Below, piece after piece: positions 3,961-58,939 of a DNA stretch of 58,939 bases (within the stretch, counting starts at the first letter, position 1; each line of letters starts with the position of its first letter). The stretch is from contig RKAV01000041.1 of NCBI GenBank assembly GCA_014846175.1, positions 1 to 58,939 of the forward strand, written 5' to 3'. The stretch comes from a bacterium (GTDB taxonomy: Bacteria > Bacillota_I > Bacilli_A > RF39 > UBA660). The translations under genes were made by a program, and so were the position numbers. A model generated the notes under the pieces. It worked only from the letters and a program-made list of their open reading frames with translations, was not told the DNA's origin and made no database searches.

Positions 3961-3975
3961 TATTATCCCTCCCTT

Positions 3976-4983
3976 CTATATTAAATTTTTTCTTGTATAA
4001 CTTGTAACATTTGGATAAGTATAAATATCAACAGTTCCTTGATTAACCATCTTGATAAATCCTAATCCATTAATACATAAATCTTCATCATATTTTATTT
4101 GATGCGTAGTCTTTCCCATCTCTTCTTTTAAATCCATTCTTTTACTAGCTATCTTTTTAATTTTTAAATCATTAGACATGTAAAAAGTAAAACTATTTTT
4201 TTCTCCACTTGTATAATCAATTCTTAATAAGTTATCTACTAAAATACTTTGACCTTTCTTAACTTGATAAGTCTTAGGTTTAATCTCTTTTCTAGGACTT
4301 ATTTTCTTTAAAACATTTTTATCAACTACATTAACTATACTACCCTTATCTACTAACCCTGGTGTATCTATTAAGGTTAGATAATCATTAAGTTCTATTC
4401 TAACTGTACTTAAAGTAGTAGCAGGCAGTGGTGAAATAGTTAATTCTTCAGTATTATCTGAATAATTAGAAATTAATTTATTAATTAAGGTACTCTTACC
4501 AGCATTAGTATGCCCTACTACATATACATCTTTACTTGTTTGATATAATTTAATTTGTTTTAATAAATAATCAATATTTTGATTTTTTTCTACACTGATA
4601 ACTATTATTTTTTCAAAAGGTATACCCATATTATTAAAGTAATCAAGTATTTTATTTTCTTTAACTGACTTTGGTAAAACATCTTTTTTATTTAAGACTA
4701 ATATCATTTTATTAGGAATATATTTTCTAATCTCTTCAAAGTCTTTTTCTATATTTAGTAAATCTGCTATATATAGAACTAAGTCTTTAGTCTCTCCTAC
4801 TTTTTTTAATATATCTATATATTCATCATTACTTTTAGTAACTACTTGATAATCACCATAATTCTTTATTCTAAAGCATCTTTGACAATAGTCTTGATCT
4901 AAATTAACACTATAACCTTCTTGTAGAACATTCTCATCTTGCAGTTTAACCCCACAACCTTTACAGTATTTTTCATCATTCAT
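3976..4983 (-). CDS. yqeH: Ribosome biogenesis GTPase YqeH (circularly permuted)
   Basis: CKGCG...CQRC zinc finger. G4 (NKKD) precedes G1 (GHTNAGKS) and DTPG. Overlaps yqeG. Confidence 0.9.
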   Translation of the reverse strand: MNDEKYCKGCGVKLQDENVLQEGYSVNLDQDYCQRCFRIKNYGDYQVVTKSNDEYIDILKKVGETKDLVLYIADLLNIEKDFEEIRKYIPNKMILVLNKKDVLPKSVKENKILDYFNNMGIPFEKIIVISVEKNQNIDYLLKQIKLYQTSKDVYVVGHTNAGKSTLINKLISNYSDNTEELTISPLPATTLSTVRIELNDYLTLIDTPGLVDKGSIVNVVDKNVLKKISPRKEIKPKTYQVKKGQSILVDNLLRIDYTSGEKNSFTFYMSNDLKIKKIASKRMDLKEEMGKTTHQIKYDEDLCINGLGFIKMVNQGTVDIYTYPNVTSYTRKNLI

Positions 4984-5500
4984 AATAGTATTTTCCTTTC
5001 TCTAATATTTTATATTCAGCCATTTTTTTCAGTATTCTTTTTTCTAAAAATCTATTAATACTAGTTATTTTAAATTCTTTATTAGATATTTTATCTACTA
5101 GTATTGTTTTTATATTTAGTTTTTTTGCTAATAACATATCAGTCATATACTGATCTCCTATTAAGAATACATTTTCTTTTGTTAAGTTATTTTCTTTAAG
5201 TAATTTTTTCATCTTTCTAGTATTTGGTTTTAATGCTAAGTAATAGTATTTAATACCTAACTTATCTCCAAACTGTTTAACTCTTTTTTTAGGACTATTA
5301 GAAAGAATAAAAAGATTAAAGTCTTTTTCTAAAGTCTTAAAGTATTTAATTACTTGCTCATTTGGATAATTTTCAGTGGTCATTGCTATTGTATTATCAA
5401 GATCAAATACTAAGGCTTTCACCCCTTGTTTCTTTAGTTTTAAAACAGGTATTTGATAAATATCTTTTATATAGATGTTAGGTCTATAATATTTTTTCAT
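4976..5500 (-). CDS. yqeG: YqeG-family HAD-IIIA phosphatase
   Basis: FDLDNT HAD motif I, GDQYMTD motif, and yqeG-yqeH synteny. Confidence 0.8.
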   Translation of the reverse strand: MKKYYRPNIYIKDIYQIPVLKLKKQGVKALVFDLDNTIAMTTENYPNEQVIKYFKTLEKDFNLFILSNSPKKRVKQFGDKLGIKYYYLALKPNTRKMKKLLKENNLTKENVFLIGDQYMTDMLLAKKLNIKTILVDKISNKEFKITSINRFLEKRILKKMAEYKILEKGKYYYE

Positions 5501-5510
5501 CTATTCACCT

Positions 5511-6911
5511 CTAATTATTAACTCTTTGTTTTATCATTTTAGTTCCTGGTGTTATCTTATCAAAATGATAACCATGTTCTTTACCATATTTAATAATTTG
5601 TCTTAAAGCATCTCTTGTATATGGTTTTATATCATGCATTAATACCATATTAGTTCTATCTTTTGATAAATTTCTTGTAACTTGATTTATAATACTTCCT
5701 GAATCTTTATATTCACCTGCATCACCACTAGATATATTCCAATCATAGTAGTAATATCCTTTTTCTATTACTTCGTTAGTTAAAGTAGACATTATTCCTT
5801 CTTGATAGTGTCTACTAATAGTATTACTACTACCTCCTGGGAATCTAATAATTCTACTATCATAACCAGTAATAGCTGCTACTCTATCATGAACTTTAGT
5901 TAAATCATTAAAATAAGCATCTACTGATTGATAGACTGTCTTATAATCATGAGAAAAAGTATGTAATGCCACCGTATGTCCTTCATCATATTCTCTTTTG
6001 ATTAAATCATCTGGTCCATTACCAGTTACAAAGAAAGTAGCTTTTACATTTTCTTCTTTTAAAATATCTAAAATAACATTAGTAGTACCATAATGTGGTC
6101 CATCATCAAAGGTTAAATAGATAGTACCTGGACTATCTCTTCTTACCATTTTAACTGTTCTTTTAGTTTCTGTTTTATTATGAAATTTATCTTCTACTGT
6201 ATAAGTTATTACTTGATCACTACTACTATTAGTATCAATACTACCACTAGTTATAACCATTCCTGTTATATCACCATCACAATTATCAATTGCTTTAAAC
6301 CCTGGTTCAACATAAGGTTCTCCTATATAGGAAAATACTATATCTCCACCAGTTAACTCAATCTTTGGAGCTTCCTTATCTCCTATTTCTATAGTTCTTT
6401 TAACACTAGTCTTATTATGAGCCTTATCTTCTACTTCATAAGTAATAGTATCTTTATCTTTTACTACTTTTACTTTCTTAGTTAAATCACCATCTATATT
6501 ATCAATCGCTTTATACCCTAATTCTTTATATTTACTATTAGGGCAAATATAAGTTTTTTTATCTCCTTCTAAAGTAATAACAGGGCTTTCTAAATCTTTA
6601 ACTTCTACTTTTCTTTTAGTACTAACAGTAATAAAAGGTCCTTTTACTTTATAAGTTAAGTAATATATACCATCTTTTTTATTATTAATCTTACCGGTTA
6701 CTTTTACTTTATCAGTTAAGTTATCAAAAATATAATTAGCTTGATATCCTGGTTCTTTATATTCACTATTTATATTTAACATAACAGTTGTTTTACCTTT
6801 TAGATTGATTCTTGGAATCAATAGAAAAAAGATAGAGATTATAACTACCAACATTATAAGAATGATAAGAACTATTTTTCGTTTCCAATTTGATTTATTA
6901 ACTTTTTCCAT
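5511..6911 (-). CDS. Membrane-anchored polysaccharide (NodB-type) deacetylase with three Ig-like repeats
   Basis: N-terminal TM segment and three (E/K)PG(Y/F)(K/Q)A..D..DGD repeats. The C-terminal NodB motifs are TFDDGP and HTFSH. Confidence 0.8.
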   Translation of the reverse strand: MEKVNKSNWKRKIVLIILIMLVVIISIFFLLIPRINLKGKTTVMLNINSEYKEPGYQANYIFDNLTDKVKVTGKINNKKDGIYYLTYKVKGPFITVSTKRKVEVKDLESPVITLEGDKKTYICPNSKYKELGYKAIDNIDGDLTKKVKVVKDKDTITYEVEDKAHNKTSVKRTIEIGDKEAPKIELTGGDIVFSYIGEPYVEPGFKAIDNCDGDITGMVITSGSIDTNSSSDQVITYTVEDKFHNKTETKRTVKMVRRDSPGTIYLTFDDGPHYGTTNVILDILKEENVKATFFVTGNGPDDLIKREYDEGHTVALHTFSHDYKTVYQSVDAYFNDLTKVHDRVAAITGYDSRIIRFPGGSSNTISRHYQEGIMSTLTNEVIEKGYYYYDWNISSGDAGEYKDSGSIINQVTRNLSKDRTNMVLMHDIKPYTRDALRQIIKYGKEHGYHFDKITPGTKMIKQRVNN

Positions 6912-46982: not shown

Positions 46983-49172
46983 TTATTTCCCTTCTAATTT
47001 TATTTTTCTAAGTCTTAGAGCATTGATTACAACTGTTAAACTACTTAAAGTCATAGCAAAAGAAGCAATCATTGGATTCATTATAATATTAAATTTAGCA
47101 AATAGTCCTATAGCAATTGGTATCATTAAGATATTGTAAAAGAAGGAAAAGAAAAGGTTTTGTTTTATATTTCTAATAGTTTTCTTACTTATGATAAATA
47201 GATTAAGAATACTTTCTAAATTATCATTCATTAAGATAATATCACTAGAATTATTAGCTATATCAGTACCACTTGCAATTGCTACACCAATAGTAGCAGT
47301 AGCAAGACTTGGGGCATCATTTATCCCATCTCCTACCATCATTACTTTTCTATTTTCTTTTAATAATTCTTTTATAATTGTTGTTTTCTCTTTAGGAAGA
47401 AGTGATGCTTTTACTTCATCAAGTGCTAAATCTTTACTAATAATATTAGCTGTTTCTTTATTATCACCAGTTAACATTAAAACTTTTTTATTACTTTTCT
47501 TTAACTTTTTAATAACTTCTCTAGCATTACTTCTTAGCGTATCTTTAACACCTATTAAAGCGATTACTTTTCTTTCTTCTACTACATAGATTACACTATT
47601 ACCCTCTCTTACTAGTCTATTAAAGTCTAGTGAATGAATATCATAAATCATTAATTGGTCTACTAACTTATCATTTCCTAGATAGTATTTCTTATCATTA
47701 ATAGTACCACTTACTCCTAGTCCTGCTATATTATTAAATTTAGTTACAGTAAGATCTGATTTACCCTTAAAAGCTTTAGCGATAGGATGCGTTGATTTAT
47801 TCTCTAAACTTGTTACTAATTCTAATATTTTCTTATCAGGATAATCACTATAATTATAAATAGTTGATACTTGTAAATTACCATAAGTTAGAGTACCTGT
47901 TTTATCAAAGACAATAGTATCAATACTGTTAAGTAATTCTAATGATTCACTATTTTTTATTAATAAACCTTTCTTAGCACAGAATCCTTCAGTAACAATA
48001 ACAGCTAAAGGGGTGGCAAGACCAAGAGAACAAGGACATGCTACTACTAAGACAGTTACAAATCTAGTTAAAGCTATATCTAAATTATTTGTTAATAGAT
48101 TAAAAATTAAGGTTAGAAAAGCGATAAGCAGAATACTTGGTACAAAGATAGAACTTACTTTATCTGCTACTTTAGCAATAGCTGGTTTAGTATTAGTAGC
48201 TTCTACTACTAGTCTTACTATTTCGGAGATAGTTGAATCTTTACCAATATTAATTGCTTCATAGGTTATATAACCATTAGTATTAATACTACCTGCTATT
48301 ACTTTATCACCTATTTTTTTCTTGATTAGTTTACTCTCTCCAGTTATAAAAGCTTCATCAAAGTAAGCACTTCCACTGATAATATTACCATCAACTGCTA
48401 TTTTTTCACCTGGTTTACAAATTAAAGTGTCGTGTTTTTTAACTTCATCAATACTAATTTCTTTTTCCCCTTCTGTAGTTTTCAATAAAGCTTTAGTTGG
48501 AGTCACTTGAACTAGTTCTTTAATAGCTTCCCTCGTTTTAGATTTACTCTTAGTATCAATAAATCTTCCTAGTTTGACAAAGTAGATAACAATACAAAAT
48601 GATTCATAGTAAAGACTTTCTACATAACTTGTTTGTCCTTTAATTATCATAATGGTATTAAAGATACTATAAATAAGACTTGCTAAAACACCAATAGAAA
48701 CTAAAGTATCCATATTAGGTGATTTATGAACAAGATTTAAATAACCACTTTTTAGAATATCTTTTCCATAGTAAAGATAAGGAAGAGATAGTATTAGTAA
48801 AGTAATAGCATAATTAACAGGATACTTTTCCATATTAAGAAGTGGTATAATAGAAAGACCTACCATGTGTGACATAGAAATATAAAGTATTAAAATAGAA
48901 AGGATAGTATAAAAGACAAATAATCTTTTATTAAGTTTCTCTTTCTTAAAGACCTTTTCTTCTGAATAAATGCCAAGACTTTTATACCCTGCTTCTTCAA
49001 TAAATCTTTCTAAATCGTTTAAAGATAGTGTTTCATCATACATAATAGTAGCAGTTGCTAAGACAAGATTAACTGAAGCATCTACTACTCCTTTTTGTTT
49101 ATTTAAATACTTTTCTAATGCCGATGAACAAGCGCTACAACTCATTCCTTCAATACTTAAAATTACTTTCAT
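46983..49172 (-). CDS. copA: Copper-translocating P1B-type ATPase CopA
   Basis: N-terminal HMA motif GMSCSACSS, CPC in the TM region, DKTGTLT and GDGINDAP. Confidence 0.95.
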   Translation of the reverse strand: MKVILSIEGMSCSACSSALEKYLNKQKGVVDASVNLVLATATIMYDETLSLNDLERFIEEAGYKSLGIYSEEKVFKKEKLNKRLFVFYTILSILILYISMSHMVGLSIIPLLNMEKYPVNYAITLLILSLPYLYYGKDILKSGYLNLVHKSPNMDTLVSIGVLASLIYSIFNTIMIIKGQTSYVESLYYESFCIVIYFVKLGRFIDTKSKSKTREAIKELVQVTPTKALLKTTEGEKEISIDEVKKHDTLICKPGEKIAVDGNIISGSAYFDEAFITGESKLIKKKIGDKVIAGSINTNGYITYEAINIGKDSTISEIVRLVVEATNTKPAIAKVADKVSSIFVPSILLIAFLTLIFNLLTNNLDIALTRFVTVLVVACPCSLGLATPLAVIVTEGFCAKKGLLIKNSESLELLNSIDTIVFDKTGTLTYGNLQVSTIYNYSDYPDKKILELVTSLENKSTHPIAKAFKGKSDLTVTKFNNIAGLGVSGTINDKKYYLGNDKLVDQLMIYDIHSLDFNRLVREGNSVIYVVEERKVIALIGVKDTLRSNAREVIKKLKKSNKKVLMLTGDNKETANIISKDLALDEVKASLLPKEKTTIIKELLKENRKVMMVGDGINDAPSLATATIGVAIASGTDIANNSSDIILMNDNLESILNLFIISKKTIRNIKQNLFFSFFYNILMIPIAIGLFAKFNIIMNPMIASFAMTLSSLTVVINALRLRKIKLEGK

Positions 49173-49312
49173 AATTAGCTTTTCCTTTCAATTTTTATTA
49201 TCTATTTCTTATATAATATTAAGTCTACGAATAATAAGGTTCTTTTTATATATTTTACTTTGATACTACTCCCCACGTCTTATGGATATCTCTATTCCAT
49301 CTTTACTACCCA

Positions 49313-49341
49313 ATTATAGGGGGCGAGGATATTTATGTCAA
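49313..49341 (-). promoter_or_regulatory. Consensus sigma-A promoter of copA-copZ with overlapping C/G-tract operator-like element
   Basis: The minus strand reads TTGACA (49341..49336), 17 nt of spacer, TATAAT (49318..49313). The -10 is embedded in CGCCCCCTATAATTGGGTA, a CsoR-operator-like C-tract/AT/G-tract pseudo-palindrome. Confidence 0.6.
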
Positions 49342-49376
49342 TAGTAAGAAAGAAAAAGGCCATATTAATGACCTAA
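49342..49376 (-). terminator. Terminator of the dam gene
   Basis: The minus strand has stem AGGTCAT / ATGGCCT (one G:U pair) with loop TAAT, followed by TTTTTCTTTCTT. It starts inside the stop codon. Confidence 0.5.
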
Positions 49377-50233
49377 TCTGTTTCATCAAATAACTTTTTA
49401 TTTTCGTAATTAGTTATAATTACTTCTTCTACTTTTCCCCTTTTTTTCCCGTTAGCATTAATATTTCTTTTAGCTTCTATTATATGGATATTGTAGTCTT
49501 TATATAAATCTTTTATTAGTGGTGTATTATAATTAGATAGCATTACATAACACCCTCTATCAGCTAGTTCTTTATATACTTTAGCAAGTCTAATTTGTTC
49601 ATCTTTACCAAAGCCATTTTCTGTATAACTAGTAAATATTTGTTTTTCTGAATCATAAGGTGGATCAAAGTAGATGAAGTCATTCTTATTAGCAGTTTTA
49701 ACTGCTTCTTCAAAATCTGTATTTAATATGGTTATATCATTAAAGTTTAAATATGAATGAATAATACCAAGATTTTGTCCTTCATAAGTATTTACTTTTA
49801 TTTTTTTACCAAATGGTACATTAAATTCATTCTTACTATTAACTCTATATAAACCGTTGAAACAAGCTTTATTTAGATAAATTGTTCTAGCCGCTCTTTT
49901 ATAATCAGCCATTCGTTTAAATTTAGCTTTATCCCTATCTTTATTTCGTATCTCATAATAATAATCTTCACTATGATTTGTCTCATGATGATTTAATTCA
50001 TTACACATCTTAGTAAACTTTGTTTCATCTTTTATACAGTTAAAGATATTCATTAATTCTTCATTATAATCATTTATCACTGCTTTTCTTGGTGATAACT
50101 CAAATAATAAAGCTCCTCCACCAACAAATGGCTCATAGTATGTATTATATTCATCAGGGGCATATAGTTTTAGTTTATCAATTACTTGTCTTTTACCACC
50201 AGCCCACTTTACAAATGGTTTTCCTTTTATCAT
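49373..50233 (-). CDS. dam: Dam-family DNA adenine-N6 methyltransferase (GATC-type), no recognisable cognate endonuclease
   Basis: FVKWAGGKRQ, EPFVGGGALLF (SAM motif I) and DPPY (motif IV), in the alpha-class order. Confidence 0.9.
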   Translation of the reverse strand: MIKGKPFVKWAGGKRQVIDKLKLYAPDEYNTYYEPFVGGGALLFELSPRKAVINDYNEELMNIFNCIKDETKFTKMCNELNHHETNHSEDYYYEIRNKDRDKAKFKRMADYKRAARTIYLNKACFNGLYRVNSKNEFNVPFGKKIKVNTYEGQNLGIIHSYLNFNDITILNTDFEEAVKTANKNDFIYFDPPYDSEKQIFTSYTENGFGKDEQIRLAKVYKELADRGCYVMLSNYNTPLIKDLYKDYNIHIIEAKRNINANGKKRGKVEEVIITNYENKKLFDETD

Positions 50234-50281
50234 GTATTTGCCTCCTAGTTAAGTTTCATATCAATTATTGTATCAAAAATA

Positions 50282-50311
50282 TTACTAATTGTCAGTACTA
50301 ACAATTAGTAA
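50282..50311. repeat. Perfect 11-bp inverted repeat between the 871-aa ORF and dam
   Basis: TTACTAATTGT (50282..50292), 8-nt loop, ACAATTAGTAA (50301..50311). The minus strand continues TATTTTT, so it may be a terminator or an operator. Confidence 0.5.
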
Positions 50312-50401
50312 ATATGATAATTCATAATGATACAGTAAATTTTCAAATTGATGACTACTAATGCATTATATTGTTTACTATTTACTTGCTAAAAAACATA
50401 T

Positions 50402-53017
50402 CTAATTTATAGCATTAGTATTTTTCTGTAATTTTTTTTCTAATACTTTTGGTTGTTCCTCTTTATTTAACAATGTCATATAACTATTAAACTCTTCTAT
50501 TGCTCTATAATCATTTTTTAAGCATTCGCCAATTCTTTCTTGATATGTTCGGGCTATATACCAATCCTTAGAATAATAAACATTTTTTATTGAATATTTA
50601 CTTATTGGTATATAATCTGTAGGATTAATTGAGTAATTTATAGAGTTTATTACGTTAATTACATTTTCATCATTATTATTATATCCATCTATAAAAAAAT
50701 CAGCAAATTTTATTTCATTCCTAGGATCCATATATGAAACATCTGGATTTTTTGACTTAATATTTCTAAGGTCAAAATTATTATCTTTATATACAATATC
50801 CAAAGTTCTGTGATAGATATCTGTATCTTTATATACCTCATCATCTTTTTCAAATATAGTAGGAGTTGGATAATCTTTTGGAAAATGAGTTGTATTTGGC
50901 TTTAAGTATGAATCACTACCAATACATGCTAAATTAATTGGTTCATTACTTTGTTTAGTAATTTCTACTATCTTTTCTATTCCTTCTTTAAATGTAGTAG
51001 ATATTAAACGACCATTAGCTTCTATTTCTTTATCTACACACTCAATACTATTAGCTATTAGTACATTCCCATTTCTTTTCAACGGACAAAAAGCAGCAAT
51101 ATCACCTGATTTATCATATATTATCAATATTCTACCATTTCTACAAAGTGCTGCATGTAACAAATGATTATGTGCTATATCAAGTGTCCTAATACAACAA
51201 TTAGCTTTATATCCTAGCTCAAATATTTGTGGGTCATCTAATTTCATAGTTTCATAAGTATAACCTCTTGTAGAAGTTCCTTTTACATAAGGGATACTAG
51301 ATTCAACTCTTTTTTTCATTTGTGAATATATTTCAACGATTTTTTTTAATATTTCATTATTACTATTCTGTGTTTTATTTCCCAAAATAATATTTTCTAA
51401 AAAACTATTATTATTTAATAAGTAATTATCTGGAGTTATTATTTTTCTATCTATATCATATTTTTCTGTTTCTAATATTGCATTTACTTTCTTTAATGTA
51501 ATTTTATTATGACATTTTTCTAATATTTCATCATAATTGTTATACAAGTAATACCATGTTTTATATAATTCAGAATTCTTATCATTAAGTATATTTATAA
51601 AATGATTATTATTTGGTGTTTCAAACATAAAGTTAATAAATCTTTTATCTATAATAGGTAAGAATTTACTTCCTTCAGCTTTCATTTCAACTCTTGTTAT
51701 ATCAGTCTTAGCAACATTATCTAAAAACATTTTGTTATATTGCCCATATTTACCACTTAATATTTCTATGCTTCTTTCATATCCAAATATAAAGTACATT
51801 TTGATACATAACCCATATATTGTAGACAATTCATCTTGAGTCTTATCTTCTAAAAATTTAGATAATTTATTAATATGTTTAACATTTACTTTAGATAATT
51901 GTTCTAGAGTCATGCCATGAAGATATCTAGCGTTAGGAAGTGCAATATTAAATTTTAAATAAAACATTAATTTTAAATCTTTTGTTATTTCATCATAATT
52001 ATTAGTTAAATAATTTATATCTCTGTAACTTATTAAACCATTATTTAAATTTCTTTTTAATGTGTTATAGATCATCTCTTGATTAACAGAACCATTTTTT
52101 AATATACGACCAGTTAAATATTTTAAAAATTTCTCTTTAATTGTCTCTTCCTGATTTTCATTTAATAAGATATCATATATTTCTTTCTCTAGGTTAGCTT
52201 GTCTATGAAAGTTTGGATGTCTAAATTGATTTTCTATTTTTTCTCTTATTAATTCGTCTCTAGCTTTTATTTCAGCAAAGAGTTTTTCAAACGACTTACC
52301 ATTCTTAACTATATTATCTGATATATATTTTTTTATATCATTATTATCAATACTATCATTAATATAATTAAGAAAAAATAACTCTTCTGAATTTAATTGT
52401 TTCATTATACTGCTATTAATTCTATCTTTATCAGAACCAAATAGGACTCCTTCTATATTGCTATATCTTTCTCTAAAATCGGTAGGAAGAAGCACCTCCC
52501 TAGTATAAAAATTTAATTTTTCTATTATTTTTAACTGTCTGTCAGTAGGCAATAAGTTAAATTCTTTACTTTTTACTACCTCATCAAAGACTTTTTTTAA
52601 ATCGTATGAATGGAAAAATTTGTCTTCAACTTTATTTTCATTCATGACAATATATAGAAAATATTTATTACTATATATTTGTTTCTTTATAGTTTGTGAT
52701 TTTATATCTTTGTTCAATTTTTCAATATTTTTTATCGTCTGTTCAGTGCAAACAAAGTTATTTAAACTTAATGTTCCTAAAATTAATATTTTTTGAATTT
52801 TATCATTAGTCCATAATTTATTTTGCATAGTGAAACCTGAACTTCTAAAAGTAGAATTGATGGTATTACTATCTAAATTTGAAATAAATTCAATTATACT
52901 CGAATCTATTATTGTATTTATTTGTTCATCTGTTAATTTTTTTAAAGTATTAATCAATTTTTTAGTTTTATACGATCTAATTTTTTTAAGATTTATTTGT
53001 GTAATATTGCTTTGCAT
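50402..53017 (-). CDS. Large ORFan protein (871 aa), Asn/Lys/Ile-rich helical N-terminus and a Cys/His-bearing C-terminal domain
   Basis: Uninterrupted ORF. The ATG at 53017 (MQSNITQ) follows a GAAGGAGAAA RBS (track TTG start 53032). The C-terminal block is GYKANCCIRTLDIAHNHLLHAALCRNG...AAFCPLKRNG...NSIECVD. I could not assign a family. Confidence 0.7.
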   Translation of the reverse strand: MQSNITQINLKKIRSYKTKKLINTLKKLTDEQINTIIDSSIIEFISNLDSNTINSTFRSSGFTMQNKLWTNDKIQKILILGTLSLNNFVCTEQTIKNIEKLNKDIKSQTIKKQIYSNKYFLYIVMNENKVEDKFFHSYDLKKVFDEVVKSKEFNLLPTDRQLKIIEKLNFYTREVLLPTDFRERYSNIEGVLFGSDKDRINSSIMKQLNSEELFFLNYINDSIDNNDIKKYISDNIVKNGKSFEKLFAEIKARDELIREKIENQFRHPNFHRQANLEKEIYDILLNENQEETIKEKFLKYLTGRILKNGSVNQEMIYNTLKRNLNNGLISYRDINYLTNNYDEITKDLKLMFYLKFNIALPNARYLHGMTLEQLSKVNVKHINKLSKFLEDKTQDELSTIYGLCIKMYFIFGYERSIEILSGKYGQYNKMFLDNVAKTDITRVEMKAEGSKFLPIIDKRFINFMFETPNNNHFINILNDKNSELYKTWYYLYNNYDEILEKCHNKITLKKVNAILETEKYDIDRKIITPDNYLLNNNSFLENIILGNKTQNSNNEILKKIVEIYSQMKKRVESSIPYVKGTSTRGYTYETMKLDDPQIFELGYKANCCIRTLDIAHNHLLHAALCRNGRILIIYDKSGDIAAFCPLKRNGNVLIANSIECVDKEIEANGRLISTTFKEGIEKIVEITKQSNEPINLACIGSDSYLKPNTTHFPKDYPTPTIFEKDDEVYKDTDIYHRTLDIVYKDNNFDLRNIKSKNPDVSYMDPRNEIKFADFFIDGYNNNDENVINVINSINYSINPTDYIPISKYSIKNVYYSKDWYIARTYQERIGECLKNDYRAIEEFNSYMTLLNKEEQPKVLEKKLQKNTNAIN

Positions 53018-53383
53018 AGTTTTCTCCTTCAAAAGTAAGATATATTATAACATTAAACTATATGAAATTACACATAAATAAAGAAATTAAGAAGCCGTTA
53101 AAGGAAAAACAAGATTATTATGGAAAAGATAAAAAAATATCACAAATTGAATCCAGTTCCCAGTTTTATTGTAAATGAACATGTGGGATTTTTAAGATTT
53201 AGAAAGAAGGAAAGTACTCCTGAAATGGATTGTCCATACTATGGTGGTACTATGTTTTCTCTTGATTTAAGCTAAAAAATTGAAGTTTTGCTTTAATATT
53301 TTTGTTGGTTGGTTTAATTTTAATAAACCCACTTTTCTTTCAGTAATGATCTAAACGCACTTTCCTTATATATAAAAAAGATG

Positions 53384-53413
53384 ATGACCTAGTCCATTAA
53401 AGGACTAGGTCAT
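53384..53413. repeat. Hairpin repeat copy 1 (terminator of the 297-aa ORF)
   Basis: ATGACCTAGTCCATTAAAGGACTAGGTCAT with an 11-bp stem, A6 before and T6 after. It matches copy 2 at 27/28 positions. Confidence 0.85.
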
Positions 53414-53416
53414 TTT

Positions 53417-54310
53417 TTAATTATTAACTTCTCTCATGACATAAACAAGATCTTTATGCCAATTTTCGTTATGATTAATTTTCTTAATAATATACTTTGA
53501 AGAAAGTAAATCACCTTTTGACATTTTTGATAGTTCCTCCCAATTTTTTACTGGTATCACGTAAGTAGCATTTCCATAATAGCTTGATTCTAGACAACAA
53601 TACTTATTAAATATAAATGCATAATAGCCTGTAAACCCGCCTGTACCACAGAATATATAAATAGGATTAAATTTATTTAACGTCTCTATTCTGTATTCTT
53701 CAAATCCTTTATTCTTACTTTTATGTTTCTTTTTATCTTTTAAAGATTTTATATCTATTTTTATGCCTTTAGGAAGAATTTCCCAATTACATCGTTTAAT
53801 TAATAAATTATCTTTGACAAGATCTAAATCTTCATTAAAGATTTCGCAATAACCAAAGACTTCAAGAAACATATTAATTATCTGTTTTAAAAGACTTTTA
53901 TTAGAATAATCTTTTATATTAGCTATTATAAATTTCCTATCATTTTTATCTTTTGTTAATACCATTTCTATATTTGTTGGACTTACTTCTATTTTAGGAT
54001 ATGCATATCTGTATACATCACTATATCCGGTATGTTCATATCCACCCCAATCTAGTAAAGACCATTCTCTTGTTGTTATATATCTATATACTTTTTCACT
54101 ACTTTTATCTGCATATGAATAACCTTCAGTATTTCTTCTACAATTAATCCCATAATGTGGTGAAGGTTCTATTGATAATCCTTCTTCAAATTCATCTATT
54201 CCTAATTTTTTATATTCATCTTCTGTAATTCTAATTCCAATATAGATTTTCTTACTATCAATTTTGTCTAAAAAATCTATGGAATTAATACGTTTCTTTG
54301 CAATAACCAT
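53417..54310 (-). CDS. ORFan protein, 297 aa
   Basis: Intact ORF with a strong AAGGAGG RBS, 48 nt downstream of the 58-aa gene. No recognisable motif. Confidence 0.7.
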   Translation of the reverse strand: MVIAKKRINSIDFLDKIDSKKIYIGIRITEDEYKKLGIDEFEEGLSIEPSPHYGINCRRNTEGYSYADKSSEKVYRYITTREWSLLDWGGYEHTGYSDVYRYAYPKIEVSPTNIEMVLTKDKNDRKFIIANIKDYSNKSLLKQIINMFLEVFGYCEIFNEDLDLVKDNLLIKRCNWEILPKGIKIDIKSLKDKKKHKSKNKGFEEYRIETLNKFNPIYIFCGTGGFTGYYAFIFNKYCCLESSYYGNATYVIPVKNWEELSKMSKGDLLSSKYIIKKINHNENWHKDLVYVMREVNN

Positions 54311-54358
54311 ATTTTTTCCTCCTTAGCTAGTAAGTAGGAACTACAAGCAAACAACTAA

Positions 54359-54535
54359 CTAATTATTTTCTTTTCTAACACCTTTAAACTTGTCACCGCT
54401 AGTTTTAACATCCATAAATTTTCCAGTGGATGTGTTTCTTTTTACATACAAGTTTGTCTTACCATTAAATGTTTGAGAACGGCCTTTTACTGCTCCAACT
54501 CTTGCATTATCACCTTTTGGTTTATTTACTGCCAT
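54359..54535 (-). CDS. Small basic protein, 58 aa (missed by the ORF track)
   Basis: The ATG at 54535 lies 5 nt after AGGAGGTG. Translation: MAVNKPKGDNARVGAVKGRSQTFNGKTNLYVKRNTSTGKFMDVKTSGDKFKGVRKENN*. Confidence 0.7.
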   Translation of the reverse strand: MAVNKPKGDNARVGAVKGRSQTFNGKTNLYVKRNTSTGKFMDVKTSGDKFKGVRKENN

Positions 54536-54794
54536 AAAGCACCTCCTATTTACATACTCGGAGATTCCTTTTTCTAAAAAATACCTATTTTTTGATCAAA
54601 GACTTGCAATTTTTTTAAATTATTGCTAAGATATTTATAGAACAAGGGTGTCTACTGTTTATCTCCTGTTCTTCATATAGTTTACTTGTGTATTCTATAT
54701 CTTGTGTTGCTATGTAGTTCGTACCTACATATGCATAGAGTATTTGTATTGCTAGCAAATACTTTTTTATTTGCCAAATAATCTATGCAACTTA

Positions 54795-54823
54795 ATAGTA
54801 TCATATTCTTCAAAAATAAGCAA
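54795..54823 (-). promoter_or_regulatory. Candidate promoter giving a ~250-nt leader for the 58-aa/297-aa operon
   Basis: The minus strand reads TTGCTT (54823..54818), 17 nt of spacer, then TGaTACTAT extended -10 (hexamer 54800..54795). Confidence 0.4.
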
Positions 54824-54886
54824 TTTTTGTCGTAAAAAAATCTGCTTTTTTGTTATTTTTATTAGTTTTCTTAGTTAATATATCAA

Positions 54887-54914
54887 ATGACCTAGTCCAT
54901 TAAATGACTAGGTC
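54887..54914. repeat. Hairpin repeat copy 2 (terminator of the RloB-like gene)
   Basis: ATGACCTAGTCCATTAAATGACTAGGTC with a 9-bp stem. It lies directly 3-prime of the minus-strand stop at 54920. Confidence 0.85.
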
Positions 54915-54919
54915 TCTTT

Positions 54920-55531
54920 CTATTTTTCTAATTCATCTATTATTTGATAAACATCTGAGTGAGGATTAGCTTCAACTGATTGAATATCTCTATTATTTTC
55001 TTTTTGATATTTTTCCAATTTTTTAGCATTATCATATGCTTTTTTAGTTTTATCAACAATAATTGGATACATATTACAATTCTTAGTATATTTTGGAAAA
55101 TGCTCTTTTAATCTTTTTATTACTGCATCGCTATTCATGTTAGCAGTCGTATATTCATAATGTAATAAAAACCACGTTTCTATACAAGGTGAAGATGTAA
55201 TTACGACTACACTATTATTTTGTGCTAATTTTATTGTTTCTTTTATTTGAGTGTTTTTACTAGAATTAACATCTGTATCAAATATACAAAATGCTCTATC
55301 ATCATCTTCTAATACTAATCTTAATTCTTTCGCTTTATCTATTGTTTGTTTAACTAAATTTACTGGATCTGTTTCATTACCAGGAACTACTTTAATTGTA
55401 TAATTTTTATCTATACCTTTAAAGCTATCAAAATAATTTCTTTCAGTTTTATTTTTACCCTCATAAGCTACTAATATTACTCTTTTTGATCTACGGTCAT
55501 TTCTATTTCTTTGTCTATCTCTACTGCTCAT
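54920..55531 (-). CDS. RloB-like TOPRIM-type protein (AbiLii / split OLD-nuclease module)
   Basis: VILVAYEGKNKTERNYF (Toprim Glu), AFCIFDTDVN (DxD) and SSPCIETWFLLHYEY match the RloB pattern ILV.CEG.KTE..YF / vFD.D / NPCFE.WlLLHF. Confidence 0.8.
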   Translation of the reverse strand: MSSRDRQRNRNDRRSKRVILVAYEGKNKTERNYFDSFKGIDKNYTIKVVPGNETDPVNLVKQTIDKAKELRLVLEDDDRAFCIFDTDVNSSKNTQIKETIKLAQNNSVVVITSSPCIETWFLLHYEYTTANMNSDAVIKRLKEHFPKYTKNCNMYPIIVDKTKKAYDNAKKLEKYQKENNRDIQSVEANPHSDVYQIIDELEK

Positions 55532-55533
55532 AT

Positions 55534-56778
55534 TTACTCTTTAAAGTCATCAAAATTATTTACTAAGAATGGCACAGCACCATATCTTCCTAATAAATAA
55601 CCCTTCTCAACATTTTCAGATTTTCTTATAGAGAAGTCATCTAAAGCATATAATGTACTTTCTCCATTTTCTGGATTCTTTTCCGTAAACCATATTTGAT
55701 CTCTTCTTAGTAACTCTAAATCTAATAAATTAGTATCATGTGTATTAAATATTAACTGAGCATTATTTTTGTTCAAATCTGGATCATTAAATAATTCAAC
55801 TATATATTTGACAATATATGGGTGCAAGCTTTTATCAAACTCATCAATTAATAATACTTTACCATTATCAATTACATCTTTAATAACTGGTATAAATGAA
55901 AATATTACTTGTGTACCTAATGATTCTTCCGAAATATCAAAATCATATTTATCGCCATTTGCAATATGAGTTGTATTTACTTTAAACATAGGTGTATTTG
56001 TTGGTATAAATGGTCTCATAATATCAGGTAATGTACTAATTAATTCATCCGTCATTTTTTCTTGTATAACCTTATAACCTTTAATATTAAAATCTGCTTT
56101 TTCTAAAAATTTAAGTGCAAATTTTTCTAAAGTTTTATCCTTATCATTATAATACATATTATAAGAATAATTATTTAATTGTTCATATGACATTACTACG
56201 CCTAGTTTCTCAGTTAAAAAATCAAATGCTGGTTTTGTTTTTTCAAAATTCCAATTAGTTGCTGTTGTTATAAAAAATTTATTGGCAGTATTCTTTTCTT
56301 TAACATCATTTAAAAATTTTTCATCACTTACATTAAATGAATATTCATTTATATTTTCTCTATTAAATATTTTAACTGGTCTGCCATTTGGATAATATGT
56401 TAAATATTCTTTATAAATATTTTTAGCATCTGCTTCAAACCCATATATATACCTTACACCATCAATTAGAAATTTTATTTCAAACCCACTTGGCTTCTTT
56501 ATAGTTTCTTTATCTAACTTAAATGGTATTATTGGTAACAAAACATTTGGATTAATAAAATTTGATTGTCTTATCATATTACTTATTAAAGCTAATATTT
56601 TAAATAAATTACTTTTACCAGATGCGTTTGCACCATATAATGCAGTCATCTTTAATAGCTTTTCATTTCCTATACTTGTAAAATTATCTTCCAAAGTATT
56701 GTCTGAAGATGCAATCATTGAAAAAGTATTTTTTTCTTTAAATGATAAAAAATTTGTAATGCTAAATTCTATTAACAT
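55534..56778 (-). CDS. ABC/SMC-like AAA ATPase (AAA_15/21 type; AbiLi/AriA-like)
   Basis: Walker A GANASGKSN, Walker B LLIDEFDKSLHP, then QLIFNTHD. The ATG at 56778 (MLIEFSITNF) follows an AGAGGAG RBS. The stop is 2 nt from the RloB-like start. Confidence 0.8.
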   Translation of the reverse strand: MLIEFSITNFLSFKEKNTFSMIASSDNTLEDNFTSIGNEKLLKMTALYGANASGKSNLFKILALISNMIRQSNFINPNVLLPIIPFKLDKETIKKPSGFEIKFLIDGVRYIYGFEADAKNIYKEYLTYYPNGRPVKIFNRENINEYSFNVSDEKFLNDVKEKNTANKFFITTATNWNFEKTKPAFDFLTEKLGVVMSYEQLNNYSYNMYYNDKDKTLEKFALKFLEKADFNIKGYKVIQEKMTDELISTLPDIMRPFIPTNTPMFKVNTTHIANGDKYDFDISEESLGTQVIFSFIPVIKDVIDNGKVLLIDEFDKSLHPYIVKYIVELFNDPDLNKNNAQLIFNTHDTNLLDLELLRRDQIWFTEKNPENGESTLYALDDFSIRKSENVEKGYLLGRYGAVPFLVNNFDDFKE

Positions 56779-56802
56779 ATAAATCATCTCCTCTTTGTAT
56801 AT

Positions 56803-56832
56803 ATTATATGCATATTTTTGAATAAAAATCAA
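56803..56832 (-). promoter_or_regulatory. Candidate promoter of the ATPase/RloB pair
   Basis: The minus strand reads TTGATT (56832..56827), 18 nt of spacer, TATAAT (56808..56803). Confidence 0.5.
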
Positions 56833-56905
56833 TTTTTTAACAATTATTATTAATTTTTTGTATTTTTTTTGCAATTTTTACATTTTATTTAGCTATTTGT
56901 ACCAG

Positions 56906-57220
56906 CTAGTAATCTAATAAATAATTAACTTCAGAAAGAAAATCATCTATTTTATCTATTAAATCATTATCTAAATAAACATGCTTGCAATCTTTTATTA
57001 ATCCATGTTCATCTTTTGGTAATTCATCTCTTGCTTTTTCAAACTCAGTATAAGTATATAATTTGCCATTACATAGAATCCTTACATTATTATCATATCC
57101 TTTATATAATTCTCTACGCCAGTTCTTTATATCATCTAAAACTGATAGTATTTTATGTCTAGAAGCCACTATTTCCATTTCTCTAGAACTTTCAGTTTCA
57201 AATACGTATTTATCATTCAT
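56906..57220 (-). CDS. Hypothetical 104-aa acidic protein
   Basis: Intact ORF whose start overlaps the upstream stop by 8 nt (ATGAATGA). Confidence 0.6.
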   Translation of the reverse strand: MNDKYVFETESSREMEIVASRHKILSVLDDIKNWRRELYKGYDNNVRILCNGKLYTYTEFEKARDELPKDEHGLIKDCKHVYLDNDLIDKIDDFLSEVNYLLDY

Positions 57221-57413
57221 CTTTTTTATCCTCCTTCTCTACTTCAGATAATTCTTCATAATCTTCTTCATATCCTAATCTTCTTAAATAATCTTTTCCA
57301 CCATCAACTGCAACTGCACCACATTTACAAAATTCAAAATCATGTCTATAAGTAGATTCAATAACATCTCCACATTTTTTACATTTAATTTTATTAACTA
57401 TTATCTTATTCAT
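57213..57413 (-). CDS. 66-aa zinc-ribbon protein with acidic tail
   Basis: CKKCGDVIES...HDFEFCKCG supplies four Cys ligands. The start overlaps the AbiEi-like stop by 8 nt (ATGAATAA). Confidence 0.6.
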   Translation of the reverse strand: MNKIIVNKIKCKKCGDVIESTYRHDFEFCKCGAVAVDGGKDYLRRLGYEEDYEELSEVEKEDKKDE

Positions 57414-58032
57414 AAAACCACTCCAATAAATCCATTACTTCTTTTTTAATACCCATTTTATCTGCATACTTATAAAGTTTAACAAGATCTTTATCTTTTC
57501 TCTTAATATATTCTCTTAAACTATATTTAATATGTTCATTATCCATTCTTTTTTTAGACCTTATAATATCACATATACATCTTTCAATATCATACACTCT
57601 AACAATATTTCCAAATGGTGTTTTGACTTCTGTTAATCCTAATTCATATATATCATCAGAAACATAAAACACATTATGATTTTTCAACTTAATACTATTA
57701 TAATTTTTCTTAACAGTTACATCATATTTACTATCAGGAACTTTTATAGAAAGTCCATGAAAGTACAATGCAGTCATATGAGAATATATAATACCTGGCA
57801 AATTCAAATTAAGTACATAATAAGAATCTGGAAATTTATTAACATCAAGATATATTCCATTATCAAGTTTTTCTATTATTCCTCTATCTAACATAATATT
57901 AAGGTAGATTCTATGAATACCTAATTCAGTTAATTGCTTAGATGTAATGTATCCATTATTAATCTTCATAAGTTCTTGTATTATCTCAATATTACTTTGA
58001 TCTTTAAACTCTTTTATAGTCATCTTTTCCAT
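57406..58032 (-). CDS. AbiEi-like (type IV TA antitoxin-family) wHTH regulator
   Basis: The N-terminus IIQELMKINNGYITSKQLTELGIHRIYLNIMLDRGIIEKLDNGIYLD fits the AbiEi_4 N-terminal domain pattern. The ATG at 58032 has better RBS spacing than 58038. Confidence 0.65.
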   Translation of the reverse strand: MEKMTIKEFKDQSNIEIIQELMKINNGYITSKQLTELGIHRIYLNIMLDRGIIEKLDNGIYLDVNKFPDSYYVLNLNLPGIIYSHMTALYFHGLSIKVPDSKYDVTVKKNYNSIKLKNHNVFYVSDDIYELGLTEVKTPFGNIVRVYDIERCICDIIRSKKRMDNEHIKYSLREYIKRKDKDLVKLYKYADKMGIKKEVMDLLEWFYE

Positions 58033-58207
58033 ATACATTCTCCTTTTGACTTTTACACCTTTATTTTATATTTTATCAGTATAAATGTCAATATCATTAT
58101 AAAAATAAAATACTAATAATTTATATAAAAATTAGTATTTTTTTAAATTTACATACCTAGCTTAGTACCTAAAAATATTTAATAGGTTTAAACACTTTAA
58201 AATAAGC

Positions 58208-58232
58208 AAAAAAAGTGGAGCCTTTCGGCTCC
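58208..58232 (-). terminator. Strong rho-independent terminator (GAAA tetraloop)
   Basis: The minus strand reads GGAGCC-GAAA-GGCTCC followed by ACTTTTTTT. Confidence 0.7.
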
Positions 58233-58356
58233 TTCAGGGGGCGGTTAGAATTCACGTACTTCAAAGTTTATATAAATACTTTTTCGTTTATTTAAAAGGA
58301 TTTAAAAGTAAATAAAATAACTAAATATTATAAGAATTTTAAATTCTTGGTAGTTG

Positions 58357-58393
58357 AAAAGGTAGTTGAGATATTTCTTAACTACCTTTTTTT
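58357..58393. terminator. Bidirectional terminator downstream of the right-edge gene
   Basis: Stem AGGTAGTT / AACTACCT, with A4 before and T7 after. Confidence 0.55.
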
Positions 58394-58435
58394 ATGACAA
58401 GATGACAATATTACTGATGGTGCCTCAAACAAGTG

Positions 58436-58939
58436 TCATTTTGTCATTTTTTCTTCTTTAAACTCATTTATTAATGCTATAAATTCATCATCAGACATTT
58501 TTACATATATTCTACTACAGTATTTTTTTTGGAATAACATCACATTATGTACTGATAAACCACAATTTTTAATTATTAATATTTTCCTTTTTCTAGTTGC
58601 TTTTTTATCCTTATTATTTTTAAAAAATATTCTAATAAATAGTACTTCATATTTTGAATACAACTCTATTAAATATTCTAATGGTATAATTAATATTAAA
58701 TATACAATTGGAATCATGAAACTTATAAAAGTATTCAAAACATTTAATTCTTTATACTCTCTTAATCCAAGTTTAAAAGTTTCATAAAAGAACCAAATAC
58801 TAATAATTACAAATATTGTTTGCATAAACTTATGTACAATTTTGTATTCTTCTTTTCTTTCAGCAACAGCATCAACTAATTCTTCAAAATTATCTTCACC
58901 AATGTACTTTATGAGTTCTTGTGGTTCTGATTTAATTTT
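58436..58939 (-). CDS. Membrane protein of unknown function, C-terminal part (ORF open to the right edge)
   Basis: The 38 codons upstream of the track ATG (58825) are in frame and stop-free to 58939 (KIKSEPQELIKYIGEDNFEELVDAVAERKEEYKIVHKF-MQT...). There are two TM segments. Confidence 0.55.
   Translation of the reverse strand, partial: KIKSEPQELIKYIGEDNFEELVDAVAERKEEYKIVHKFMQTIFVIISIWFFYETFKLGLREYKELNVLNTFISFMIPIVYLILIIPLEYLIELYSKYEVLFIRIFFKNNKDKKATRKRKILIIKNCGLSVHNVMLFQKKYCSRIYVKMSDDEFIALINEFKEEKMTK

Follow-up and report, generated by a model that had tools for sequence, protein, structure and literature searches.

A two-gene cassette with a structured leader at an integrase-terminal palindrome: a probable anti-phage unit in a defence island of uncultured gut Bacilli

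Defence hotspots adjacent to integrase genes are known in integrative elements and satellites, for example the P2/P4 hotspots. We analyzed a comparable locus in GenBank contig RKAV01000041.1, a stretch of 58,939 nucleotides (nt) that is referred to as a whole as the window and whose closest named relative is the metagenome-assembled genome (MAG) 'Bacilli bacterium RGIG4820', from a rumen or gut lineage of Bacilli. The element in question is a 1.5-kb interval between two copies of a hairpin, with two minus-strand genes, the first encoding a 58-amino-acid (aa) basic protein and the second a 297-aa protein. As at P2/P4-type hotspots, variable known defence systems occupy a fixed position beside a conserved integrase. 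The locus differs from those hotspots in its boundary, a specific palindrome within which the integrase stop codon lies, in its hosts, low-GC gut Bacilli that are uncultured, and in that the window has lost the integrase and apparently stacks two boundaries. We conclude that the interval is probably an anti-phage-type transcription unit, with a leader and a portable head, in the cargo slot of an integrase-bordered defence island. The overall kind of arrangement, a cassette next to an integrase in a defence island, is already known; neither Rfam nor the four protein-family libraries searched contain the leader or the 297-aa family.

The 58-aa protein belongs to PDC-S38, one of 145 PADLOC candidates proposed by 'guilt by embedding' (Payne et al. 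2024, bioRxiv 10.1101/2024.01.29.577857). The PADLOC entry is a single-gene candidate, whereas here PDC-S38 stands in a two-gene operon behind a conserved structured leader. As guilt by embedding predicts, its relatives adjoin restriction-modification and other defence genes. Insulated from its surroundings, the cassette consists of a promoter, a structured leader, PDC-S38, an exchangeable second gene and a terminator, and its features within the window are as follows.

54887-54914, no strand assigned: hairpin copy 2, a 9-bp stem with one G-to-T change in an arm; terminator of the upstream AbiL operon
54795-54823, minus strand: putative sigma-70-type promoter (TTGCTT, 17-nt spacer, TG-extended TACTAT), placed by conservation only
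54536-54788, minus strand: structured 5' leader of ~255 nt, delimited by conservation, folding and covariation
54359-54535, minus strand: first gene, 58-aa basic protein PDC-S38 (PADLOC PDC-S38, phrog_12550)
54334-54344, minus strand: intergenic hairpin GTAG-TTC-CTAC, between the two genes
53417-54310, minus strand: second gene, 297-aa protein of a large family of ~300-aa proteins that has no name
53384-53413, no strand assigned: hairpin copy 1, a 12-6-12 palindrome ATGACCTAGTCC-ATTAAA-GGACTAGGTCAT with A and T runs on its flanks, supported by folding, a terminator scan and a synteny break at 53366

A pattern search of the window for the 28-mer ATGACCTAGTCCATTAAAGGACTAGGTC gave an exact match at 53384-53411 and a match with one mismatch at 54887-54914, confirming the 28-nt repeat differing by one base that a first-pass annotation of this DNA had reported. 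No third site was present in the window save the palindromic self-match on the opposite strand, and shuffles of the window gave 0 matches (0 expected). Each copy does fold directly 3' of a minus-strand stop codon, as had been described, with stems of 12 and 9 base pairs (bp) rather than the 9-11 bp first given. On the minus (gene) strand, copy 1 forms a 12-bp stem (-21.4 kcal/mol, z -7.7) that begins 4 nt past the stop of the 297-aa open reading frame (ORF), and copy 2 forms a 9-bp stem (-17.2 kcal/mol, z -5.5) that begins 6 nt past the stop of the neighbouring RloB ORF (54920-55531). A terminator consensus scan called both copies on both strands (4 sites versus 0.6 expected). Both have the makeup of an intrinsic bidirectional terminator, a GC-containing stem and a T run directly after a stop codon, and the gene-strand T run behind copy 2 is weak. 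Copy 1 is predicted to act as a bidirectional terminator. Between the two copies lie the 297-aa ORF, the 58-aa ORF and a 351-nt stretch (54536-54886). The latter had been described as a non-coding leader of ~350 bp; it indeed has no conserved ORF, and within it are the promoter and a conserved 5' untranslated region (5' UTR) of ~255 nt.

Public collections were scanned for GACCTAGTC-N8-GACTAGGTC. The exact palindrome was found in ~38 low-GC contigs (23-28% G+C) from gut or rumen samples, and 29 of these contigs have an ORF that reads into the palindrome and ends at a TAA stop inside the loop. These ORFs end in ...DLDNKKEDDLV[L/H]-stop or ...KTKNKDDLVL-stop, and those that are full length have 402-422 aa and a tyrosine-recombinase catalytic region (...HDFRHSCASLL...YLGHSKI...YSHMY). 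Together, one hairpin arm and the loop encode the end of a convergent tyrosine integrase, its C-terminus and its stop codon. On the plus strand of the window, copy 1 reads ...KKDDDLVH-stop, the last integrase codons, and copy 2 reads ...NDLVH-stop; nothing of the integrase body is left in the window at either copy. The gene convergent with the integrase varies among the contigs, where at least 12 other, unrelated cargo genes end in the same hairpin. When twelve different convergent neighbours were scanned against PADLOC, the matches included Shedu SduA (E 3e-44), PARIS AriAB (E 2.5e-73), Avs4 (E 2e-31), Hachiman HamB (E 8e-25), Gabija GajA (E 1e-17) and Old (E 2e-17).

These results identify the palindrome as the 3' end and terminator of a tyrosine integrase gene family, a fixed boundary with variable defence cargo. 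The hairpin thereby marks the ends of other cargo genes, a point that the first-pass annotation had raised as a question. It had also considered that the hairpin might be a generic repeat at unrelated gene ends. Because the palindrome is the integrase end in 29 of the ~38 contigs, with cargo varying on the other side, it is not a generic genome-wide repeat. The cassette sits at this integrase-terminal palindrome, a position usually filled by known defence systems. Since several cargo genes at the same hairpin are known defence proteins, the two genes qualify as a candidate defence module. The earlier proposal of such a module is therefore well supported by association, with the amendment that both genes belong to known or large families. 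The palindrome search alone, without a protein search, recovered Shedu, PARIS, Avs4, Hachiman and Gabija/OLD-like genes, and the integrase-terminal palindrome would, if this reading holds, be a landmark for defence cargo in uncultured gut Bacilli.

Two near-identical relatives of the locus (L001 and L011; loci in the DNA collected for this analysis carry L numbers) are 94-98% identical to the window and have only positions 53366-58241 in common with it. Their sequence departs from that of the window immediately beyond copy 1, in a stretch where both retain degraded pieces of an integrase, and the hairpin thus marks the edge of a module. The cassette had been suggested to have been inserted or swapped by recombination at a shared terminator module. 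The boundary part of that suggestion stands, and the hairpin is more than a terminator in that it encodes the integrase C-terminus and stop.

Tyrosine-recombinase core sites such as loxP or dif have a 12-6-12-like layout, and the palindrome might itself be such a site, with the cassette inserted site-specifically, integron fashion, and one site left on each side. The 12-bp inverted arms around a 6-nt spacer are in keeping with this explanation, as are the constant abutment of the palindrome on the integrase gene, the variation of cargo exactly at the palindrome, the loss of synteny within ~18 nt of it and the fact that copy 2 keeps nothing of the integrase beyond the palindrome itself. We nevertheless regard a core site as unlikely. 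No locus with more than two hairpins and no integron-like array was present among the contigs examined, the cassette has its own promoter, and the cassette lineages L006 and L057 terminate in an ordinary hairpin, different from this one and clear of the integrase. Moreover, the loop differs among contigs yet keeps an in-frame stop codon, which a coding end combined with a terminator explains equally well. The resemblance to integron cassettes extends to a short unit between direct copies of an imperfect palindrome near a tyrosine recombinase, with defence cargo; the adjacent recombinase is represented in relatives by the 402-422-aa ORFs, and the window itself has none. Unlike the promoterless cassettes of an attC array, however, this unit has its own conserved promoter, its 12-6-12 sites lack attC features and number at most two, and the integrase is convergent, at the downstream end.

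With the palindrome read as an integrase gene end that bounds a cargo slot, copy 2 can be placed as well. In contig L116, the hairpin and then an integrase come after a 106-aa cargo gene that is unrelated yet resembles the RloB 3' end over its last 20 nt. This arrangement fits copy 2 as a former boundary, and copy 2 may be the relic of an earlier slot boundary.

Other hairpin ends were also noted. In L109 (4468-4700), a metagenome copy, the hairpin behind the 297-aa gene is followed not by the integrase but by what appears by eye to be the end of an rve-type insertion sequence (IS) transposase; the hairpin boundary is a rearrangement hotspot. In other cassette lineages (L057-L064 and L139-L146), a convergent tyrosine integrase, often truncated, lies 14-17 nt past the stop, and the integrases beside these lineages match Pfam Phage_integrase. 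In L139 the integrase has its full length of 431 aa, and an 84-aa ORF follows it. The L057 terminator hairpin is of another sequence (AACCGGTGA...TCATCGGTT) and does not overlap the integrase ORF.

Upstream of the leader, a -35 element of the form TTGnnn, a 17-nt spacer and a TG-extended -10 element are common to all six cassette lineages (6/6) and suggest a sigma-70-type promoter; in the window it scores 8/12, below the threshold of the promoter scan. DNA homology between cassettes (~69%; 80% to the DUF8370 cassettes) extends from the coding region to 54805-54823 and spans the promoter and the whole 5' UTR. The leader folds at -55.8 kcal/mol versus -38.0 +/- 4.0 for shuffles (z -4.45). An RNAalifold consensus, with covariation assessed on six sequences from the six lineages, contains four helices with 29 pairs, 7 of which show compensatory changes. 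Pairing was observed in 92% of cells, compared with 36-52% when partners were slid, and 0/500 shuffles reached the observed covariation. The six lineages share one further helix in addition to the following elements.

54788-54775 with 54746-54733, minus strand: P1, the 5'-terminal 12-bp helix, common to the six lineages
54729-54713, minus strand: invariant UGUAG-N7-CUACA hairpin, common to the six lineages
54565-54560 with the Shine-Dalgarno sequence at 54546-54541, minus strand: anti-Shine-Dalgarno helix, the final helix of the leader

Rfam covariance models gave no match on 54536-54788, with weak hits (E about 1-4) on the two hairpin copies only. A hidden Markov model (HMM) of the leader found 57 copies across the DNA collected, and PDC-S38 follows directly after 57/57. 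At PDC-S38 loci outside the gut Bacilli lineage, namely in Flavobacteriia, in streptococcal and staphylococcal prophages and on plasmids, no leader was found. Leaders that occlude the ribosome-binding site (RBS), such as ribosomal-protein leaders and riboswitch platforms, are likewise long structured 5' UTRs in which the last helix pairs with the RBS and shows compensatory change; the present leader differs from them in having no Rfam match and in being limited to one lineage of PDC-S38 cassettes. Given the helix that would hide the RBS, the leader may gate translation. Binding of the UGUAG-N7-CUACA hairpin by PDC-S38 was considered as well and was downgraded, the motif being missing at the Flavobacteriia, prophage and plasmid PDC-S38 loci.

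The second gene of the cassette is exchangeable. Window positions 54330-54805 are 80.5% identical to loci L065-L070, in which the next gene encodes DUF8370, and the swap junction relative to the DUF8370 cassettes lies ~20 nt before the ATG of the second gene. The intergenic hairpin motif, which has 1-2 base changes in some lineages, is kept with either a 297-aa family gene or DUF8370 in second position. The leader, PDC-S38 and the intergenic hairpin together form a portable 5' head with an exchangeable gene behind it.

The 58-aa ORF has AGGAGG 7 nt upstream, as expected from the strong RBS support claimed for it at first. It had been called an ORFan, a label that did not survive database comparison: the protein matches PADLOC PDC-S38 with E 4.2e-30 (residues 1-57 on model positions 1-57 of 57) and phrog_12550 with E 7e-25, and the PDC-S38 family has at least 611 clusters. 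Members in a 22-sequence sample from Bacilli and Bacteroidota are 72-91% identical to the window protein, and remoter copies (48-71% identity) are found on plasmids of Klebsiella, Yersinia, Clavibacter and Hymenobacter and in Streptococcus and Staphylococcus prophages. In Flavobacteriia, an identical PDC-S38 protein is encoded by gene 1 of a CBASS operon (LRAT, NUDIX, SMODS, E2) in some loci and by gene 1 of a PycTM and cyclase operon in others. Both kinds of operon are divergent from an M78-peptidase gene and its upstream partner, which in L051 is an HTH gene. In gut Bacilli, PDC-S38 precedes a member of the 297-aa family or a 292-aa DUF8370 protein. It adjoins known defence genes, AbiL in the window and MwoI restriction-modification, an SLFN helicase, CBASS or Pycsar in relatives. 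Elsewhere, in prophage lysogeny modules and on a Yersinia plasmid, PDC-S38 is solitary and has a promoter and a terminator to itself. An AlphaFold2 (AF2) model with a predicted local distance difference test (pLDDT) score of 70 has one helix followed by four beta-strands; Foldseek returned no structural match for it, and a sequence profile search of the PDB returned none. A literature search by name returned no paper on PDC-S38 and none on DUF8370, and the literature searched yielded no account of PDC-S38 recurring as gene 1 in CBASS, Pycsar-like and other operons.

The 297-aa protein also turned out not to be an ORFan. A word-indexed search gave 186 clusters of relatives, and a full HMM scan (E <= 1e-3) gave 2025 representatives, nearly all of ~300 aa. 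The first-pass annotation recognized no motif in it, and this was upheld by the absence of any match in Pfam, NCBIfam, PHROGs or PADLOC; PDB sequence profiles searched from two family alignments gave no match either. The AF2 model (pLDDT 84, predicted template modeling score [pTM] 0.56) consists of a beta-rich N-domain, a disordered Lys-rich linker (residues 183-200) and an alpha/beta C-domain, and Foldseek against the PDB and BFVD gave nothing below E 0.01. The structure comparison proposed at the outset thus yielded no significant fold match for either protein. Named hosts of the family include Roseburia hominis, Roseburia zhanii, Hespellia and [Clostridium] polysaccharolyticum, and it is also carried on plasmids of L. 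cremoris SK11, Latilactobacillus sakei, B. thuringiensis, Leptospira interrogans and Acinetobacter johnsonii. Among its neighbours are ATPase+Toprim pairs, an SLFN-type helicase and the S, M and R genes of type I restriction systems. In one case, on L. cremoris SK11 plasmid 5 (NC_008507.1; L166, 100-5711), the Type ISP restriction enzyme LlaGI is followed after 18 nt by the start of the 303-aa member WP_011669131.1 (hhalign probability 99.95%), which has no small partner gene. One family member stands alone on an 8.6-kb Acinetobacter plasmid, and PDC-S38 is absent beside the family gene at 35/38 genome loci. DUF8370 was considered as a divergent member of the family and ruled out by an hhalign probability of 0.1%.

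In place of PDC-S38, small basic ORFs of other kinds come before the distant members of the 297-aa family (35-52% identity; L014, L024, L026, L027, L028, L041-L043, L046, L047). In L024, L027, L028, L041-L043, L046 and L047, the small ORFs lie ~100-260 nt upstream of the family gene. One kind is a 41-48-aa Ser/Lys-rich peptide (MAVHHGGKVGKAGKTLASKSSSKQSKSK...), another is MANKIRTSKSVAKK..., and the upstream small ORF of L014 looks YjzC-like by eye.

The pairing of the two genes is not obligate, since PDC-S38 can head unrelated operons or stand alone and the 297-aa family often lacks it. They could even be functionally independent, with PDC-S38 an autonomous gene that shares a promoter with a separate single-gene system, the 297-aa protein. 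The PDC-S38 copies of Streptococcus and Staphylococcus prophages and of plasmids, which stand alone between a promoter and a terminator of their own, the single-gene PADLOC model, and the occurrence of the 297-aa family without PDC-S38, including alone on small plasmids, all speak for independence, and we hold it to be a serious possibility that falls short of an even chance. Against it, a gene that follows PDC-S38 is only 0-60 nt away on the same strand with no terminator between, the intergenic hairpin motif survives effector swaps, and PDC-S38 is always first in an operon and never last. From this pattern of partners, PDC-S38 appears to be an accessory or regulatory head rather than a dedicated partner.

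The same gene pattern bears on whether the pair is anti-phage at all. A small basic protein encoded upstream of a larger one, the location of both genes on plasmids, in prophages and in integrase-bordered islands, and the known toxin-antitoxin pairs that adjoin them on some plasmids would be compatible with a toxin-antitoxin or addiction function, or with a mobile-element function such as that of an anti-restriction or nucleoid-like protein. A dedicated antitoxin, however, would not join unrelated partners (CBASS, PycTM, DUF8370 and the 297-aa family) at 72-91% identity, nor would it stand alone. In place of the dedicated, co-evolving pair of a type II system, the small gene has unrelated partners or none and the large gene occurs alone, with no small partner in the case of the member 18 nt behind LlaGI. 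The slot is otherwise filled by bona fide defence genes. A function other than phage defence is accordingly very unlikely in our judgment, and the cassette appears to be an anti-phage module.

ZorC, the DNA-binding EH subunit of type I Zorya, requires E400 and H443 for DNA binding and defence (PMC11946911). Four of 25 distant members of the 297-aa family match the PADLOC ZorC model PDLC00614, weakly (E 2.5e-5 to 4e-3) and always through the C-terminal 60-70 residues, on positions 381-452 of 465. E241 and H280 are invariant in 32 family sequences, H280 being only nearly invariant in a wider alignment. This Glu-His pair is 39 residues apart, compared with 43 for E400-H443 in ZorC, and the 297-aa protein is half the size of ZorC. 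Pfam listed no match for any family member even at E <= 10, EH_Signature included. None of ZorA, ZorB or ZorD lies near the family gene in 40 genome loci inspected; instead of Zorya genes, the neighbours in the window are AbiL, AbiEi, an 876-aa ORF and a D12 methylase. An EH-like C-terminal domain is a weak lead, and the sole one, to the function of the family. On its strength the 297-aa protein might be a nucleic-acid-binding effector or sensor.

A working model can be proposed for the cassette. Transcription would start at the TG-extended promoter and run through the folded leader of ~255 nt, PDC-S38, the short intergenic hairpin and the 297-aa gene to the bidirectional terminator. The leader would hold translation low until a cue opens the helix that hides the RBS. 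PDC-S38 would then act as a nucleic-acid-binding accessory or regulatory head, and the 297-aa protein as an effector or sensor that binds nucleic acid by its EH-like C-terminal domain. Defence cargo would be exchanged at the integrase 3' end boundary; AbiE/AbiL and then the cassette would have been stacked as two cargo modules, and the integrase lost from the window.

Several observations weigh against this reading. The defence role is assigned through guilt by association, and PDC-S38 is itself a PADLOC candidate. The window 297-aa protein has no match among ZorC, Pfam or PDB models, and ZorC (8r68) was ranked 19 by Foldseek with E 0.89, which is not significant. The solitary PDC-S38 copies of prophage lysogeny modules and plasmids speak against a role that is purely regulatory. 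The leader structure is drawn from six lineages, a thin sample that makes it suggestive, and since the leader is absent from PDC-S38 loci in other phyla, it is not essential to PDC-S38 function. Finally, no empty site, with AbiL abutting the left flank or the integrase directly, was found among the 21 contigs with the same RloB; with no such site and no locus with more than two hairpins, any order of insertion events is tentative.

If the 297-aa family is what it appears to be, it would be a new effector family of 2025 representatives, found near restriction systems and on small plasmids in hosts that range from Lactococcus to Acinetobacter and Leptospira. It is testable because homologues occur in culturable strains, and the LlaGI-linked WP_011669131.1 is tractable. 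PDC-S38 would acquire a role as a near-uniform protein (72-91% identity in the 22-sequence sample, two phyla) that heads unrelated immune operons, a pattern that would imply a shared regulatory or sensing step beyond current CBASS and Pycsar models. The leader would be a candidate new cis-regulatory RNA tied to immunity genes. A bolder version makes PDC-S38 a universal portable head that gates abortive-infection-type effectors (CBASS, Pycsar, DUF8370 and the 297-aa family), the Bacilli leader a riboregulatory element and the palindrome the site at which heads and effectors are shuffled; we give this version a low probability. It would amount to a modular cassette-exchange system for immunity genes in a phylum that is not known to have integrons.

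Upstream of the cassette, searches of PADLOC and Pfam identified the following neighbours.

54920-55531, minus strand: AbiLii/RloB
55534-56874, minus strand: AbiLi/AAA_21
56906-57220: unassigned 104-aa ORF, just upstream of AbiL
57213-57413: DUF7695 zinc-ribbon-like ORF, after the AbiEi-like gene
57406-58038: AbiEi-like gene, for an antitoxin or regulator of the AbiEi type (PADLOC E 3e-60), with no AbiEii partner

The cassette might be an accessory of the AbiL-type ATPase+Toprim system upstream, the two forming a four-gene unit. The first-pass annotation had suggested a search for strains without the cassette, and none emerged: all 21 of the 21 contigs with an identical RloB protein carry it, as such a unit would predict. 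Likewise, in a Lachnospiraceae/Roseburia clade (35-39% identity) with a different small ORF before the family member, that member again follows an ABC-ATPase and an RloB/DUF4276-like gene. On the other hand, the cassette is set apart from AbiL by a terminator (copy 2) and a promoter of its own, and the same cassette occurs without any AbiL in L006-L013, L057-L064 and L139-L146. ATPase+Toprim pairs are among the commonest defence-island genes, so that chance adjacency is likely, and a four-gene unit seems highly improbable. In the Lachnospiraceae/Roseburia loci (L024, L027, L041-L043, L047 and L048; about 3700-5600), the ABC-type ATPase has ~439 aa and is only remotely related to AbiLi (E 0.015-0.08), and the gene of ~200 aa between it and the family gene has RloB/DUF4276-like motifs.

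The 4.9-kb block 53366-58241 behaves as one unit that includes both hairpins and contains the AbiEi-like gene, DUF7695, the 104-aa ORF, AbiLi, AbiLii, PDC-S38 and the 297-aa gene; its copies in L001 and L011 have other flanks and lie directly downstream of recG. The AbiEi-like gene may regulate the AbiL operon. The longest AbiLi ORF has 446 aa from a TTG start, 32 codons more than the 414-417-aa product called in related contigs, and the true start is probably the internal ATG at MIYMLIEF.... DUF7695 is also found just upstream of the cassette leader in L139-L145. A megablast of 49000-58939 against phage and plasmid collections gave no match. Immediately to the left of copy 1, an 876-aa ORF (50402-53032) that has no Pfam match lies beside a D12-class adenine methyltransferase gene (49373-50233), and the two may be another defence-type module. 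L001 has at this position a D12 methylase, ORFs of 74, 860, 632 and 301 aa, and DUF6339.

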